DNA of 64,000 nucleotides from NCBI GenBank assembly GCA_016214605.1, contig JACROD010000014.1, positions 41,074 through 105,073 on the forward strand, read 5' to 3'. Within the stretch, counting starts at the first letter, position 1; each line of letters begins with the position of its first letter. The translations under genes were made by a program, and so were the position numbers. The DNA comes from Candidatus Kaiserbacteria bacterium (GTDB taxonomy: Bacteria; Patescibacteriota; Minisyncoccia; Phycocordibacterales; UBA2100). Shown piece after piece: positions 1,088 through 55,657 of the stretch. Below the pieces are notes generated by a model. That model was given only the letters and a program-made list of their open reading frames with translations. It was not told the DNA's origin and did no database searches.

Positions 1088-2143
1088 ATGGCAATAGTGC
1101 AAAAACATTTTCTTTTCACATTGTTTTTGTTGGCACTTCTACTCACCGCGCCCATGGCGTATGCGCAGTCCGGAGCCATCTTCGTTAGTCCCAACCCTGA
1201 GGCAGTGGCGACCATTATCATGATTCCAAAAAATCCATCGCCCGGAGACACCGTGCACCTTACCGTGACCGGCGGATCACTACTCGACCTCCAAAACAGC
1301 ACTATTACTTGGTTTCAAAATGGCAAGCTTATTTCTAAAGGAGTCGGGTATGCGAGTCTCGACATTACCACTGGCACTCTTGGATCAGAGGATGACGTGA
1401 ATGTACAAGTTGACTCTCCGGACGGCGCGACGGCCGCGAGCTCGATCTCGATCATCCCGACACACGTCGACCTGCTCCTCGATTCCGATTCGTATATTCC
1501 GCCCTTCTACCGGGGCAGAGCACTGCCCTCCGCCGGTACTCACATGCAAGCGCAAGCGTTGGTATATTTCAAACGGAGCGACGGATCATTCATACCACCA
1601 AATTCGATCATATATACGTGGAAGGTGAATGGGCAGGTCATCGGAAATGTCTCAGGGAAAGGGAGGCAAACGGCAGTTCTTCCTGCACCGGTATTATTCG
1701 GGACCAGCAACGTCTCTATCGAGGCCGTATCGACCGATAATCTTTTTACTGGATCGGCATCTACCAATATCTCGTCTGTCGAACCTATTCTCATGCTTTA
1801 CGAAGACCATCCACTTTTCGGCATACTCTTTCATCGTGCCATGGGGCAAACGACCACTATTCCAGATTCTGAAATGACGTTTGCCGCAGTGCCTTATTTT
1901 ACTCAAGTGAAAAATCCCAACGACCCACAACTGCGCTATCATTGGATGGTAAACGGAAACCTTATCGTTGCCGACACTAACCATCCGAGTGAGATCGTTA
2001 TCAACGCCGACAAATCCAATGGGGAAGCCGCTATCACGCTTGCACTCAACCATGCGAGTAATTTTTTAATGAACGCAAAAGGAAGTTGGGACGTTATATT
2101 CAAGGTATTTGATCAAACAAACGCTTTTTTCTCTAATTTTTAA
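1088..2143 (+). CDS. secreted hypothetical protein
   Basis: internal ATG of track ORF 1007..2143 that begins right after the 1079 stop; N-terminal signal peptide MAIVQKHFLFTLFLLALLLTAPMAYAQ. Confidence 0.5.
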   Translation: MAIVQKHFLFTLFLLALLLTAPMAYAQSGAIFVSPNPEAVATIIMIPKNPSPGDTVHLTVTGGSLLDLQNSTITWFQNGKLISKGVGYASLDITTGTLGSEDDVNVQVDSPDGATAASSISIIPTHVDLLLDSDSYIPPFYRGRALPSAGTHMQAQALVYFKRSDGSFIPPNSIIYTWKVNGQVIGNVSGKGRQTAVLPAPVLFGTSNVSIEAVSTDNLFTGSASTNISSVEPILMLYEDHPLFGILFHRAMGQTTTIPDSEMTFAAVPYFTQVKNPNDPQLRYHWMVNGNLIVADTNHPSEIVINADKSNGEAAITLALNHASNFLMNAKGSWDVIFKVFDQTNAFFSNF

Positions 2144-2149
2144 TCTCTT

Positions 2150-3397
2150 ATGCATGCCACACGACTTTTCCTACTCTATCTACTCGCTGTCGTTATCGTC
2201 ATAATCCTTGGCGGATTCGTTGGGTGGTACTTCTTTTTGCATATACCACAAACGAAAGAGGCTGTAGTCGACGCGGCACGAGGACTTAATTCTTCGATAA
2301 ACCCTTTCACGGGCGGAAGTACGCAGGACAATATTCGCGTAGAGGTCGCCGGCAACTCCACCAGCACGGCCGAAGTGCCGACATCTGCGCTATGGCAAGT
2401 AGATAAGACGCCCGTCGCTGGCATGAATTTTGTTAAACATGCGACTTCCACTTCTCTAGATTATATACAGCGCGCAAACGGATACGTCTTTCGGGCCGAT
2501 CCGAAAACAAAGACGGTCGTTCGCCTAACGGAAACCCTGACACCAAAGATTTATGAGGCCTTCGTGAGTTCCGACGGTGCCGTGATCGCCCGCTCTCTCG
2601 ATGATTCCGGGTCGATCACCACATTTATGGCGACCGTGGGAGCCACCACATCAAAAACAAGTACTTCTACCGAACAAAACACATTGAGAGGCTCTTATGT
2701 CGCCAAAAATATCTCTTCTGTGGTCCCAAGCCCTACGACACACTCCATCTTTTATACCATTCCCAATGACATTGGAGGGGTCGATGGATACACCGCCCTC
2801 TGGGACGGATCGAAACCAAAAAAGATCTTCATTTCGATCATTTCTCACTGGACACCTCTATGGCTTTCGGACGGACGCCTTATTATCACAGAAAACCCTG
2901 CCGATGATATGCCGGGCTATGCCTATAGTGTGAGTAACGATGGCACTATGACACTATTGGTCGGCAACGTCCCAGGACTCACATTCCTGCCACTCTCATC
3001 CTCAAAAGCGGTCATTTACGGAGCATCTGCAAACGGCGTACTTTCACTTTTTGCCCAAGGGGCTGCCAGCACTACCCCAAACACCCTCAATATTCAAACG
3101 GTCGCCGATAAATGCGTGTGGCTGGGAGGTAAAAGTCTCATCGCTTACTGCGCTGTTCCGACGACTCCTCCTACAGGAAAATTCCTTGATCAGTGGTACC
3201 GCGGAGTTATTCACACTTCTGATTCATGGTGGAAAGTAGACGTCCAAAACAGTGTTGCCCTAGAAATATATTCACCGAAGACGACGAATAACGTCGACCT
3301 CGACGTCGAACGCCCCACCATTGATCCGAGTGGAAATTATATTGCCTTTATCAACGCGTCCGACAAATCGCTTTGGATGCTTAATATACCCCAATAA
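2150..3397 (+). CDS. membrane-anchored extracellular hypothetical protein
   Basis: 415 aa ORF; one N-terminal TM helix (LFLLYLLAVVIVIILGGFVGWYFF) followed by a Ser/Thr-rich ectodomain. Confidence 0.5.
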   Translation: MHATRLFLLYLLAVVIVIILGGFVGWYFFLHIPQTKEAVVDAARGLNSSINPFTGGSTQDNIRVEVAGNSTSTAEVPTSALWQVDKTPVAGMNFVKHATSTSLDYIQRANGYVFRADPKTKTVVRLTETLTPKIYEAFVSSDGAVIARSLDDSGSITTFMATVGATTSKTSTSTEQNTLRGSYVAKNISSVVPSPTTHSIFYTIPNDIGGVDGYTALWDGSKPKKIFISIISHWTPLWLSDGRLIITENPADDMPGYAYSVSNDGTMTLLVGNVPGLTFLPLSSSKAVIYGASANGVLSLFAQGAASTTPNTLNIQTVADKCVWLGGKSLIAYCAVPTTPPTGKFLDQWYRGVIHTSDSWWKVDVQNSVALEIYSPKTTNNVDLDVERPTIDPSGNYIAFINASDKSLWMLNIPQ

Positions 3398-21501: not shown

Positions 21502-22004
21502 AAACAAAGATCGCGGGTACGGATGCGATGGAGACCTTTGCGCGCGAATTCATCTCGCAGCTTTCTCCTGTTGCCGGCGGAGCGACGATCATCGCGCTCT
21601 CAGGCGACCTCGGTGCGGGCAAGACTACGCTCGCGCAGGGGATCGCGCGGGCGCTGGGGGTGGAGGAGGCGGTTACGAGTCCTACCTTTGTGCTGGAAAA
21701 GGTGTATGAGCTAGGTAATCCTAGTGCGGAGGCGGGAGCACTTTTTTCCGCTTCCGCCTATCGTTCGGGTCGGGAAAAAGTGCTCCCGCCTCCGCGCCCC
21801 TGGACACACCTCATCCACATCGATGCATACCGACTCGTAAGCGAACACGAGCTCGAAGTGCTCGGCTGGCACGAAATGGCGCAGAATCCCGGCAATCTGA
21901 TCGTGATCGAATGGCCAGAGATGGTCGCGGAACTTATTCCTGTGGATGCAATACGCATTACTTTCTCTGGTTCTGGAGAGGTGCGAGACATTTCCATCAA
22001 TTGA
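21498..22004 (+). CDS. tsaE: tRNA threonylcarbamoyladenosine biosynthesis protein TsaE
   Basis: P-loop ALSGDLGAGKTTLAQGIA and HIDAYRL motif typical of YjeE/TsaE. Confidence 0.8.
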   Translation: MKTKIAGTDAMETFAREFISQLSPVAGGATIIALSGDLGAGKTTLAQGIARALGVEEAVTSPTFVLEKVYELGNPSAEAGALFSASAYRSGREKVLPPPRPWTHLIHIDAYRLVSEHELEVLGWHEMAQNPGNLIVIEWPEMVAELIPVDAIRITFSGSGEVRDISIN

Positions 22005-29715: not shown

Positions 29716-30032
29716 CTTGTGGTCAGGGATAATTCGATCGCCGTCGCGATCGAATTTCCCCGACCCGGCCTCGCGGCTCGGCCTACTGGCCTCGCATCGC
29801 TCCGGCTCGCACTCGTAGACAAAAACAGCCCGCAAGTAGGTGTTTCCTTGTGGTCACAGATAATTCGTTTGCCGTCGCAAACGAATTTCCGCGAAGCTTT
29901 GCACTTGGTTTTCTAATTCGCTTCGCTCATAACAAAACCTACGCCCGCCTCGCGGTCTCGCCTACTGGCTCGACAACGCTCTGTCTCGCACATGTACACA
30001 AAAACAGTGCGCAGGCACTGTTTTTGGTCATG
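29716..30032. repeat. two tandem copies (A 29716-29846, B 29847-30032) of a hairpin-bearing repeat family located 3' of tRNA genes
   Basis: each copy begins cttgtggtcaNNgataa + 10-bp hairpin with loop ccgtcg, then conserved GC-rich core, then hairpin 2 plus T-run; third copy at 35384-35522. Confidence 0.8.
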
Positions 30033-30105
30033 TGCGCCCAGTTGGATTCGAACCAACGACCCACTCCTTAAAAGGGAGATGCTCTACCAACTGAGCTATG
30101 GGCGC
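30033..30105 (-). tRNA. tRNA-Lys (anticodon TTT)
   Basis: 73-nt cloverleaf; anticodon loop cttttaa; T-loop ttcgaat; CCA not encoded. Confidence 0.9.
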
Positions 30106-35312: not shown

Positions 35313-35383
35313 TTGTAATCAGTAGGCGTATTTCCATGGGGTCGCGCGTACTCGCGCGACATCGCTCCGGCCGGTATATGTCT

Positions 35384-35522
35384 TTCATGTGGTCACGGAT
35401 AAATGAGTCGTCGTCACGACTCATTTTCCGCGACCCCGGCTCGCGGCTCGGCCTGCCGGCCTCGCAGCGCTGCGCCCGGCACATGCACCGAAAAACAGCA
35501 CGCAGGTGCTGTTTTTCTGTCA
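35384..35522. repeat. copy C of the tRNA-flank repeat family
   Basis: catgtggtcacggataa + hairpin aaatgagtcgt/acgactcattt, conserved ggctcgcggctcggcctgccggcctcgca core, hairpin aaaaacagcac-gcag-gtgctgttttt. Confidence 0.8.
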
Positions 35523-35594
35523 TGTGCCCCCGGCAGGAATCGAACCTGCATTACGAGCTCCGCAAGCTCGCGTTCTATCCATTAAACTACGGGA
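35523..35594 (-). tRNA. tRNA-Arg (anticodon GCG, unusual)
   Basis: 72-nt cloverleaf; anticodon arm cgagc-ttgcgga-gctcg; T-loop ttcgatt. Confidence 0.7.
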
Positions 35595-35681
35595 GCAATA
35601 CCCGACCATCCTTTAGAGGAAGGGATAGGGGACAATGTAGCACAGAATGATCGCTTTTCCACACTTTGTTCTAAAATAGCA

Positions 35682-45941: not shown

Positions 45942-46085
45942 CTACTTCGCTCCGAAGCTTCGCAACGGAGCTTCGAAGTGCACGGCACTACAAATACCCA
46001 TATTACGTTGTTACCCTACAAGCGAAGTAGCCCTTCGTAGCTCAGTAGAGCGAAGGAGGGCATATTTGTGGCACGTACAACCGTG

Positions 46086-49702: not shown

Positions 49703-52700
49703 ATGAGCGGTACGATTACTATTGCTATACTGATACTTGTTATTTTACTCGCCAACGATCTTACTATGAATCATTTCCGTATTGTGCGCTCCGCGGGGGC
49801 TTTTGTGACTGCTATTACTTTTATCTTCGCGCCAATTTCTCCCGCCCTCGCGCTTGGTGAACTGCCGACCGATGTCACGCCACCGATTATCTCTCTGGGT
49901 ACGGTCACTTCGATCGCCACGTCGTCTGCGACTATCACCTGGACGACGAACACGAATGCGGATACGCAAGTCCATTATGGGACGACATCGAGCTACGGTT
50001 CGAGCTCGTCGCTCGATTCGACCCTCGGCCTGACGCACTCGGTGACGCTTGCAAGCCTCTTGCCCAACATGACCTATCACTATCAGATAGCATCGCGCGA
50101 CGCATCTGGAAATCTGACTACTTCTTCCGATGCGACATTCACTACGAACTCATTGCCGGTCGTGGTCATTTCCGACACCACGCCGCCGTTGGTTTCAAAT
50201 ATCGTTGCTGCGACCGTTTCCTCCGTCGCCGAATCAATCGTGTGGACGACCAACGAATTCGCCACCTCGACTATCCGTTGGAGTACTGACACAAGCTACT
50301 CTTCGACGTTTCTCGTATCCGAAACGGCAGGCCCCACTCATGCCGGTGCCTTGGTCGGACTTTCGCCTTCGACCACATACCATTACTGCATCGACGCGAC
50401 CGACCTCGCGGGCAATACCACAAGCTCGTGCGGGCATACGTTTACTACCGCCGAGGCACCTCTCATTCCCGACACGATCGCGCCGGCCATTGTGGATGTC
50501 GCTTCTATGTCGCTTGAGCCGCATACTGCTACCGTGACGTGGACGACGGATGAGCTTGCGGTCTCGACGCTCGAATATGGCACGACGATGAGTTACGGCA
50601 CTTTGGCTACGCTTTCGGCAAGCGCGCTCCTTTCGCACGCGGCCGAGCTCACCGGCCTTACAGCAAACACCACGTATCACTATTGTCTCCACGCGACGGA
50701 TCTCGCGGGGAATATCACGAATTCTTGCGGCCACTCGTTTACCACGGCCGTTGTGGAGGTGATGCTCGACACGAACCCGCCGACCGTCTCGTCAGTTACT
50801 GTCGCGCCTATCACCACGACTTCGGCAACAATAGGGTGGACGACGGACGAGATCTCGGGTGGCTATGTGGAGTACGGCACGACCATCGGCTATGGCTCGG
50901 AGACCGTATTCGATACCAACCTCGCACTTACGCATGAAGCGACTCTTGCAGGACTAACACCCGACACCATCTATCACTACCGTGTCCACTCGCGCGACGA
51001 GGCGGGCAATACCGTGATAACTCCCGATGAGACATTTACGACCCCGCAAAGCGCCTCCGTTACCGCGGGGCAGGCCGCTTCGATACCGATTATCTCGACG
51101 CCTTCCGATACGACCCCGCCTTCGATACGCGAAGTGACTACGAGCTCCATCGGTTCGACCATTACGACGATAAACTGGACGACCAACGAGCTTGCCGTCT
51201 CGACCTTTGACTATGGCACGACACAAAGCCTCGGCTCCCACGCCGAGCTGTCCGGCAGTGGCTTGCTCACGCACGATGCGACCCTCGTGGGGCTTTCTCC
51301 GAGTACGACATACTACTATTGCATCCACGCGACCGATCTTGCGGGCAACGTCGCTGATTCCTGTGGCCATTCATTTGTCACCGGCGCACCTCCGCTCGTC
51401 CCCGACACGACCGCTCCGTCGGCTACCTCCGTCGTCGTTTCGTCGATTATCGCTGACTCCGCGTCGATTCATTGGACGAGCAGCGAGACGGCGGATTCGC
51501 AAGTGCAATACGGCACGACGATCAATTATGGAATGGAGACCCCCATAGAAGCGGAATCAAATTTTTCCGGTACTGCCTCACTGGCTAACCTTGCACTCAA
51601 TACGACGTATCATTTCCGCATCCGCTCATATGATTCGTCGGGGAATGTCGGGCTTTCGAGCGATTATACATTCACGACCGCCGCATCGTCGGGTTCATCT
51701 GGCACGTCCGCAAATGCGGCCCCCATTATCTCAGGGGTTGGCGCGGGTACGATCGGGGAAACGAGCGCGACGATCAATTGGACGACCGATGTGCCAGCCG
51801 ATTCGCTGCTCGAATATGGCAATAGCGAAAACCTCGGTTCCGGTGCGTCGTCCGCCACACTGACGACTTCGCATGCCATAACGCTCACGGGACTTTCGTC
51901 CGACACCAACTATCAATTCCGCGTCATTTCAAAACCGGCCGGCGGCGCTGCATTCCAGACGACCTCGCCAATGCATGAATTCACAACGCTTGCCGTACCC
52001 ATCATCGTCGATCCGGCAGCCAATATCACGTCTGTCTTGGCTCGAGTGGTCGGAAGCGACGCATCCGTATCATTCACTACTGATGAAATGACGACGGGAC
52101 AAATCGAATACGGACTGGATACTTCGTATGGTTCTGCCGTTGCTTGGAGCGAAGGGCGGGAAGCGGGCACGCTCTCGATCCCAGGATTGCAACCGGGGAC
52201 GTACCACTTCCGCGTGAAAGCGATCGATGTGGGCGACAACATTACGTATTCGGAAGACCACACGTTCATGATTGCCGGAAGCTCTTTCGCGACTTCCACA
52301 CAAGCGCAAACTCAAACTTCAGATGGCAGTTCTTCAAGTGTTGCGGCGCCCGCCTCCGCTGTGTCAAGTGCGGCTCTGGCGGGCAATGGCGGAGGCGGCA
52401 GTTTCGCACTCGCCGTCTCGACGCCGGTACCCAACGTCGTCACGGCGGAAGGTGTCGACTCGCAGATCGTGTTCGCGTGGAGGAATCCGGAGACTTCTAA
52501 TTTTGCCGGTACGGTCGTGCTTCGCAAAGCAGGCGGCTACCCAAGCGGTCCACATGACGGGACTGTGATCTACAATGGCTCGGCACAAACATTCACTGAT
52601 ACGTCTCTTACGAACGGGACGACCTACTATTACTCCCTGTATTCATACAATTCAACGAATCAGTATTCCAATCCGATACACGTATCGACTGCGCCGAAAG

Positions 52701-55562: not shown

Positions 55563-55606
55563 CAAAACAAAAATCGTCGGATGCATCGCGTCCGGCGGTT
55601 TTTGTC
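55563..55606 (+). terminator. terminator after tRNA-Leu
   Basis: cgtcgga…tccggcg imperfect hairpin followed by GTTTTT. Confidence 0.4.
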
Positions 55607-55657
55607 TTTGTAGCCAATAGTGCGCTGGTGGGTAAGTGCCCTTGAAGAGAAAAATTA

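Follow-up and report, generated by a model that had tools for sequence, protein, structure and literature searches.

We find a gene-less repeat directly behind tRNA genes of Patescibacteria-type assemblies, and its core is a structured RNA or single-strand element under selection, with compensatory changes well above controls. Our window was a 64,000-nucleotide (nt) stretch of Candidatus Kaiserbacteria bacterium DNA (contig JACROD010000014.1, positions 41,074 to 105,073), in which an original prediction, made from the sequence alone, had placed three hairpin-bearing units. All three were confirmed: copy A at 29716-29846, copy B at 29847-30032 and copy C at 35384-35522. We read them as copies of a Patescibacteria-wide, gene-less, structured tRNA-tail repeat that is non-autonomous and mobile or recombining, of the REP/MITE/attC kind. 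This is the interpretation that we favor, with somewhat less than even confidence.

Within the window, the motif GTGGTCA-NN-GATAA-N9-CGTC-N9-TT occurs in A, B and C only, with three mismatches tolerated and a chance expectation of 0.02. Copies A and C form a gap-free alignment of 123 nt with 76% identity. The two adjoining minus-strand tRNAs of the original prediction are present: tRNA-Lys(ttt) beside B and tRNA-Arg(gcg) beside C. All features of the copies described below lie on the minus strand. tRNA-Lys(ttt) (30032-30105; ARAGORN; Rfam tRNA, 73.9 bits) has a promoter-like site upstream on the same strand (30175-30147). Behind it, copy B begins with hairpin T (29987-30032), which is terminator-like (A5, GC stem, loop CUGC, U5) and has an outer stem, CAUG.../...CAUGUGCG, that extends into the tRNA 3' end; the last 4 nt of the tRNA (CGCA) and the next C pair with the far arm. 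Hairpin P2 follows (29947-29985; covariance-model (CM) match 29941-29991), comprising a base GNC/GN'C, an internal loop, GCG/CGC, a 2-nt bulge, a distal stem and the loop AGUA. Alignment places a 49-nt insertion (29895-29943), folding into an additional hairpin, between P2 and the base of P3. The core of L016 has a homologous insert at the same point, with a compensated stem (GGUUUU/AAAACC versus GAUCUUCU/AGAAGAUC). Copy B ends with hairpin P3, with its loop GACG, bulged A and G·U pairs, and the terminal CAC (29850-29894; CM match 29850-29928, 45 bits). Copy A is the distal member of this tandem pair behind tRNA-Lys. It consists of a degenerate T-hairpin remnant (29808-29849), which retains the 3' arm and U-run and has a decayed 5' arm, and an intact core (29719-29812; P2 29768-29806, P3 29721-29765) that the CM matches with 98.4 bits (E 1e-20, CM E-values being rough). 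The fold z-score of copy A is -5.4 on the minus strand versus -2.5 on the plus strand.

Copy C lies behind tRNA-Arg(gcg) (35524-35596; ARAGORN; Rfam tRNA), whose 3' end, GGCA(C), pairs with UGCC of the copy C hairpin T (35478-35524; inner terminator-like hairpin 35491-35516). Its core is a three-way junction (35389-35482; CM match 91 bits) made up of P1 (CAUGUG/CACAUG), P2 (35438-35476) and P3 (35391-35435), and P1 is closed in the minimum-free-energy fold (z-score -6.9). A 7-nt direct repeat (TCATGTG on the plus strand, CACAUGA in tRNA sense) brackets T and core together, with its proximal copy at 35518-35524 and its distal copy at 35385-35391. Distal to C is a decayed further copy (35338-35370; repeat family D4; weak CM match 35328-35377, 15 bits), of which only the P2-like hairpin is left (GGAGCGAUG-stem-AGUA-stem). 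The CM (R1) thus scores A at 98 bits and C at 91 bits on the minus strand, splits B at its insertion, and finds nothing else convincing in the window. We rejected its weak match at 21704-21818 as an unrelated 21-bp hairpin: a perfect palindrome (GCGGAGGCGGGAGCACTTTTT...AAAAAGTGCTCCCGCCTCCGC; 21722-21800) inside overlapping open reading frames (ORFs), with a weak and spurious score.

The stems of the three copies behave as the original prediction had described. The first hairpin has a perfect stem of 11 bp with loop CGTC, and its stem differences (two for A versus B, five for A versus C) are all compensated. The second hairpin and T-run, with the ca/tg compensation, are present in B and C and degenerate in A. 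What had been called a GC-rich core is in fact hairpin P2, with conserved internal loops. The full unit is hairpin T of the tRNA followed by the core of ~95 nt, which folds as a three-way junction of P1, P2 and P3.

Covariation across homologous copies is overwhelming. When 46 single copies were first aligned in tRNA sense, three hairpins emerged, and 37 of 47 predicted pairs had compensatory changes. The core was then separated from T, and an explicit structure was tested against shuffled and slid controls. Among 41 copies, 96.1% of pair cells were paired (78.1% in shuffles, 35 to 50% in slid controls), and 250 cells were doubly changed versus 72 in shuffles. R1 was built from this 41-sequence core alignment. 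In 112 CM copies, 95.7% of pair cells were paired (32 to 48% in slid controls), and all 34 pairs showed double changes. The covariation score was 0.51, compared with 0.15 for shuffles and at most 0.09 for slid controls, and doubly changed cells numbered 742 versus 194. Both stems are therefore selected for pairing, as had been predicted. Further copies might have lacked stem covariation; the opposite was seen, with ~110 copies strongly covarying.

P1 was revealed by copies that had not been picked with the search motif. It joins the first and last three bases of the core, which covary (GUG/CAC, UCG/CGA, GCG/CGC, GAA/UUC and UUG/CAA), and the core is therefore a closed three-way junction. Because the seed copies were picked by a fixed motif, P3 seems more conserved in sequence than it is. 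In copies not selected by motif, the conserved bases are GNC-GGAG, CGAG-N-CGGGGUCG and UGACC, which form the parts of P2 and P3 nearest the junction; the junction sequences GNCGGAG and CGAGNCGGGGUCG...UGACC are kept even there. Conservation also extends to non-canonical features. The internal loop GGA/GA is found in 33 of 41 copies, the AU bulge in ~36 of 41 and tandem G·A pairs (GA/GA) in 15 of 41. The bulged A, an invariant G·U, a GC/GU site (21/20) and the GACG loop are further examples.

In hairpin T, a GC stem with a loop, in many cases CUGC, is flanked by an A-run and a U-run. In B and C, the layout of an intrinsic terminator (A5-stem-loop-stem-U5) can be read from the sequence; a simple terminator scanner passed over these hairpins, as A-run and U-run pair with each other within a longer stem. 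The stem continues outward past the U-run, and its far arm, X', is complementary to the last four to five tRNA bases (X1). In core P1, the same X' pairs with X2, a short direct repeat of the tRNA end (CAC plus 2 to 7 nt). Family-wide, tRNA positions 70 to 72 covary with the far arm of T, with pairs CG18/GC14/UA9/AU4 and GC33/UA7/CG4 between positions 70-71 and X'. Long T-type hairpins are found at 86% of tRNAs with a core versus 37% of those without, and also at empty orthologous sites. We take T to be the tRNA's own terminator-like hairpin because it is also present at coreless tRNAs and empty sites; the core is best seen as an added module that starts exactly at the foot of T. Like intrinsic terminators, T has a GC-rich stem between A-run and U-run directly behind the tRNA, with or without a core. 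Unlike them, its stem continues beyond the U-run and pairs with the last tRNA bases, and P2 and P3 lack a U-run and have conserved internal loops. The suggestion of a terminator thus holds for the second hairpin, which is terminator-like and bidirectional, but not for the rest of the element. Terminator hairpins of coreless tRNAs often reach beyond the U-run as well, pairing with the last 4 to 22 bases of the tRNA. Long palindromes enclosing a tRNA 3' end were observed at many loci, for example at tRNA-Ser(tga) in L009, tRNA-Tyr in L023, tRNA-Arg in L136 and tRNA-Leu in the window (55564-55620).

The element folds on the tRNA strand. On that strand, the core has 74 G·U versus 7 A·C pairs (13 versus 7 without two special sites), and its frequent mismatches are G·A, not C·U. 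Minus-strand folds are more stable than plus-strand folds (-66.9 versus -50.9 kcal/mol for A; -78.5 versus -69.9 kcal/mol for C). Upstream of A and C, the plus strand shows no promoter-like site; tRNA-Lys, in contrast, has one. The G·U and G·A bias, the stabler minus-strand folds and the promoter pattern together identify the folding strand as that of the tRNA, either as RNA or as single-stranded DNA. This runs against the plus-strand reading implied by the original prediction.

An exact-pattern scan of one genome per species yielded 85 stretches. Of these, ~80 exact-motif matches had a paired stem, and nearly all were in Patescibacteria-type assemblies (labeled Patescibacteria, Paceibacterota, Parcubacteria, Nomurabacteria, Kaiserbacteria or similar); most sequences are metagenome-assembled genomes. 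Six matches in other phyla were discarded as chance, their 'stems' being unpaired. In nearly every real match, the motif starts 111 to 139 nt (mostly 131 to 139) from the 3' end of an opposite-strand tRNA. Seen from the tRNA strand, the element thus comes directly after the tRNA. Larger distances reflect tandem copies or insertions. The CM returned 142 matches in 79 related loci. Of these, 79 stood directly behind a tRNA on the same strand, 37 followed another copy in tandem, and most of the others were at locus edges. Many isotypes carry the element (Lys, Arg, Glu, Tyr, Ala, Val, Ile, Leu, Trp, Gly, Pro and His), and in some contigs up to half of the tRNA genes have one behind them. It was never found behind tRNA-Ser (0 of 11) or tRNA-Cys (0 of 8). 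Many contigs start or end in or beside an element (L002, L003, L014, L039, L046, L055, L066, L067 and L079), which suggests that near-identical copies break short-read assemblies.

The element is apparently undescribed. In Rfam 15, only tRNAs passed the gathering threshold in the window and in the related loci alike; with E up to 10 at the two loci of the window, the best non-tRNA match was an SAH riboswitch, at 18 bits versus a gathering score of 37. Our literature search found no description of the element, the nearest being group I introns in Patescibacteria tRNA genes (PMC13011429) and REPs (PMC3733652). Several other identities were considered and rejected. A phage origin is ruled against by an exact-motif scan of viral contigs, which gave zero matches. 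A tRNA-like or tmRNA-like gene does not fit, as ARAGORN reports only seven tRNAs in the window. A small protein gene was suggested by minus-strand ORFs that begin ATGAC after both tRNAs; their frames and stops differ between B and C. A group II intron remnant came to mind from the GUGYG-like 5' start and a hairpin with AGC and a bulge; against it stand the much too small size of the unit, a bulge on the wrong strand and the absence of any Rfam match.

Presence of the core is patchy. To sample without bias, we took 80 metagenome loci for which the sole selection was a Mur-ligase gene with the synteny of the window (tRNA-Ser ... tRNA-Arg ... Mur ligase ... tRNA-Lys). Its 144 tRNAs gave 12 core matches. 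A core was found at 6 of 49 tRNA-Lys(ttt), at 0 of 25 tRNA-Ser and at 1 of 44 tRNA-Arg(gcg), where a second, divergent copy was visible by eye. It is from these low counts at orthologous tRNA sites that we conclude patchiness. Tandem arrays are frequent (24 found), and the window itself holds decayed copies (the T hairpin of A and the fragment at 35338-35370). In the arrays, the copy next to the tRNA scored best in 9 of 24; it is not systematically the best preserved, and we therefore rejected the idea that the newest copy sits next to the tRNA. Identical variable ('free') stems recur in separate assemblies behind tRNAs of unlike isotype; L010 (Lys) and L060 (Arg), for instance, have the whole core and the inner T hairpin in common.

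Short direct repeats bound the units. The bases after the tRNA CAC match those after the terminal CAC of the element more often than when shuffled (88 versus 67 over 3 nt, P < 0.0002), and the direct repeats of the window copies measure 3 to 7 nt. Relatives with P1 = UCG/CGA are located 60 to 120 nt behind tRNA-Pro, Gly, Lys, Leu or Val. After them comes a 15- to 18-nt direct repeat of the tRNA 3' part, to which their 5' flank is complementary. A second small tRNA-linked family was observed at the 3' flanks of tRNA-Lys, Arg and Leu (L160, L146, L157, L142, L153 and L063) and inside the cores of L012, L067 and L078. Its 3' motif is GGUGUACUGA-stem-UGUAA-stem-CGA(U); behind this, the 3' strands of the tRNA T-stem and acceptor stem are directly repeated. 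The family has no Rfam match. Elsewhere in the window, behind tRNA-Arg(tct) (45943-46075), a long hairpin precedes a tRNA-like remnant of 33 nt (GCCCTTCGTAGCTCAGTAGAGCGAAGGAGGGCA) in which the 5' start and 3' end of this tRNA recur. The window also contains six copies of a 43-nt segment at a spacing of ~300 nt (49940-51821; TGGACGAC...TATGGCA), which are probably a tandemly repeated protein domain.

Cores are themselves sites of insertion. In L041, an IS110-family insertion sequence (1700-3020; transposase ORF 1895-2848, plus strand; Pfam DEDD_Tnp_IS110 and Transposase_20) lies within one copy of a four-copy array behind tRNA-Ala, precisely between P2 (...CGCGAGACC) and P3 (GGGGTCGCGG...). This core thus served as a target for IS110, much as REPs do. 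Insertions recur where P2 meets the P3 base, a point taken by this IS110, by the copy B insert and by other small insertions. We also observed a recurrent pairing (L011, L032, L053, L072, L080 and others) in which a 'mini' core of ~70 nt, with a short P2 (CGACGG), a short P3 and the loop AGCA, sits beside the tRNA and a full core lies directly behind it.

No protein family travels with the element. All-against-all ORF clustering of the 79 loci (8- to 13-kb pieces) returned housekeeping families only, and a linked integrase, transposase or reverse transcriptase was accordingly rejected. The L041 transposase was likewise rejected as a linked gene, because it is inserted into a core copy and not flanked by core. 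The original prediction had each locus follow one of a set of paralogous Cys/Gly-rich secreted-protein genes. This was not confirmed: A and B follow a 514-amino acid (aa) ORF with no Pfam match, and C sits behind rpsT (ribosomal protein S20). The 725-aa ORF is on the other side of tRNA-Arg from C and has only a C-terminal domain in common with the 514-aa ORF (31% identity over 74 aa). The order tRNA-Arg, element, rpsT was found repeatedly in several genomes, so some copies are old and stable. Downstream genes show no orientation bias (29 convergent, 32 co-directional), and a role tied to convergent genes was rejected.

The element resembles four known systems in different respects and does not clearly fit the definition of any. 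REP, REPIN and BIME sequences are gene-less, multi-copy imperfect palindromes downstream of genes, often tandem or clustered, and are thought to work as RNA or DNA hairpins mobilized in trans; REPs are insertion targets of IS110-family elements, and are single hairpins of 20 to 40 nt, with an unpaired GTAG/CGTC tag at the foot, behind many kinds of gene (PMC3733652). The present element is likewise gene-less, multi-copy, tandem and hit by an IS110. Unlike a REP, it is a three-way junction of ~95 nt plus a terminator hairpin, strictly at tRNA 3' ends, and its CGTC/GACG is the loop of P3 (CGTC on the plus strand) and not a tag at the foot. Bacterial miniature elements (MITEs) such as Correia of Neisseria and ERIC are non-autonomous repeats of 100 to 150 nt that fold when transcribed, have short flanking duplications and are patchy among strains; their long terminal inverted repeats derive from a parent insertion sequence. 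Size, folding, short direct repeats and patchiness are all shared with MITEs, and the direct repeat of CAC plus 2 to 7 nt is significant. The terminal inverted repeat (GUG...CAC), however, is just 3 to 6 nt, ~6 nt at most, and orientation to the tRNA is fixed. We found no parent insertion sequence, the IS110 of L041 sitting within a core.

Integron attC sites and the attP site of CTX phage are folded single-strand recombination sites with conserved structure, variable sequence, and conserved extrahelical bases or mismatches. They fold on one strand specifically, have core repeats at unit boundaries and build arrays at one fixed site, and two short inverted boxes, of which one is the crossover site, pair to form their outer helix. 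Conserved structure, conserved extrahelical bases and mismatches, a strand-specific fold, short boundary repeats, arrays beside one site and an outer helix of two short inverted boxes are all features of the present element. Its terminal boxes are GUG(N)/CAC, however, with GTTRRRY/RYYYAAC boxes absent by inspection. It also has no gene cassettes, neither attI nor an integron integrase is seen beside it, its fixed site is the end of a tRNA gene, and recombination is here a proposal. Integrative elements that target tRNAs have att sites at tRNA 3' ends, are bounded by direct repeats of the tRNA 3' segment and carry an integrase. The relatives with 15- to 18-nt repeats of the tRNA 3' part, which keep the tRNA intact, resemble these. 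In contrast, the present units are 130 to 200 nt long with no integrase or other ORF, the repeats of the window copies are 3 to 7 nt, and the same core stands behind at least 12 tRNA isotypes.

We infer that mobility is the cause of this pattern, and that a trans-acting recombinase or transposase uses a single-strand substrate. Under this favored reading, the element would be copied into position right behind tRNA genes; in relatives, it would enter the T-loop and duplicate the 3' part of the tRNA. A putative trans-acting enzyme would recognize the element in single-stranded, folded form, whether as DNA of the tRNA-sense strand or as tRNA read-through RNA, with the built-in complement of the tRNA end spanning the junction. 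The unit would be tolerated because it brings or abuts a terminator and leaves the tRNA intact. Since the ORF clustering of the 79 loci identified no recombinase or transposase, the mobilizing activity is hypothetical. Neither an excised form nor an insertion polymorphism between strains was seen.

The patchiness could alternatively reflect frequent loss of an old host element. A serious rival, though to our minds a less likely one, is that the core is a host cis-acting RNA, part of the tRNA 3' trailer or of a tRNA-operon spacer. X' would then alternate between the tRNA's own 3' end, giving the long T stem, and X2, which closes P1 and frees the acceptor stem. By binding an RNase or some other protein, for example, the folded junction would steer how read-through RNA is processed, degraded or insulated. 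Consistent with this, both pairings (X1:X' and X':X2) are supported, the element always stands in tRNA sense immediately after the tRNA, copies lie between tRNAs of one operon, and G·U far exceeds A·C, with tandem G·A pairs, on the tRNA strand. The conserved non-canonical features would be erased by neutral palindrome 'correction'. Strand bias, conserved non-canonical pairs and tRNA-operon location (L068, L045) suit a functional RNA equally well. On the other hand, most orthologous tRNA-Lys and tRNA-Arg sites of relatives are without a core, and it is common for copies to be degenerate, arrayed in tandem or interrupted by nested insertions. Copying between loci is indicated by variable stems that are identical behind unrelated tRNAs. 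Most tRNA transcripts may stop ahead of the core, given a terminator-like T, and the downstream genes again show no convergent bias.

A bolder version of either idea seems unlikely to us. The element may be a pairing-guided insertion system acting on single-stranded DNA or RNA, in which X' names the target at the tRNA 3' end or T-loop, or it may be a new catalytic or processing RNA of the tRNA 3' end; the junction would be its active or protein-recognition center.

Ordinary terminators together with neutral palindromes, the stems of which are kept by template-switch (quasipalindrome) correction during replication and not by function, are an improbable account of the whole. Neutral maintenance accounts for T, a canonical hairpin of A-run, GC stem and U-run in which G·U and A·C are balanced, and it agrees with the long T hairpins into the tRNA end at 37% of coreless tRNAs and with inverted copies of the tRNA end of up to 22 nt. 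It fits the core poorly. The imperfections of the core listed above are kept across many assemblies, its junction sequences are conserved also in copies not chosen by motif, and its strand asymmetry of 74 versus 7 is unexpected for a neutral DNA palindrome.

We give very little credence to a plus-strand small RNA that is convergent with the tRNA and has T as its own intrinsic terminator, the orientation of the original prediction. Structure followed by a hairpin and U-run is the usual small-RNA layout, and T has a U-run in the plus direction too. On the plus strand, however, A·C mismatches stand in place of the conserved G·U pairs and U·C/C·U in place of the tandem G·A pairs, the folds are weaker, and A and C have no upstream promoter-like site; the outer T stem also extends beyond the U-run, and some tandem copies have no T between them. 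Small ribozymes in general have a small junction with conserved junction nucleotides and variable stems, and are multi-copy and repeat-associated. A new self-cleaving or otherwise catalytic RNA, cleaving read-through or operon transcripts where the tRNA ends and having its site in P1 or T by the junction, would share these traits and would have a substrate helix that includes the tRNA 3' end, but it is highly improbable given that there is no Rfam ribozyme match with E up to 10 and that the conserved bases lie mostly within helices and not in junction strands.

Patescibacteria, which account for a large part of bacterial diversity and have tiny genomes, have hardly been studied by experiment. 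The element described here is either a new class of small mobile DNA that is specific to tRNA genes, possibly with pairing-guided targeting, or a new RNA with a part in the processing of tRNA transcripts. It probably explains contig breaks beside tRNAs in Patescibacteria assemblies, and the covariance model is ready for use in annotation. Either way, the element offers a testable handle on tRNA gene expression and genome plasticity in Patescibacteria.
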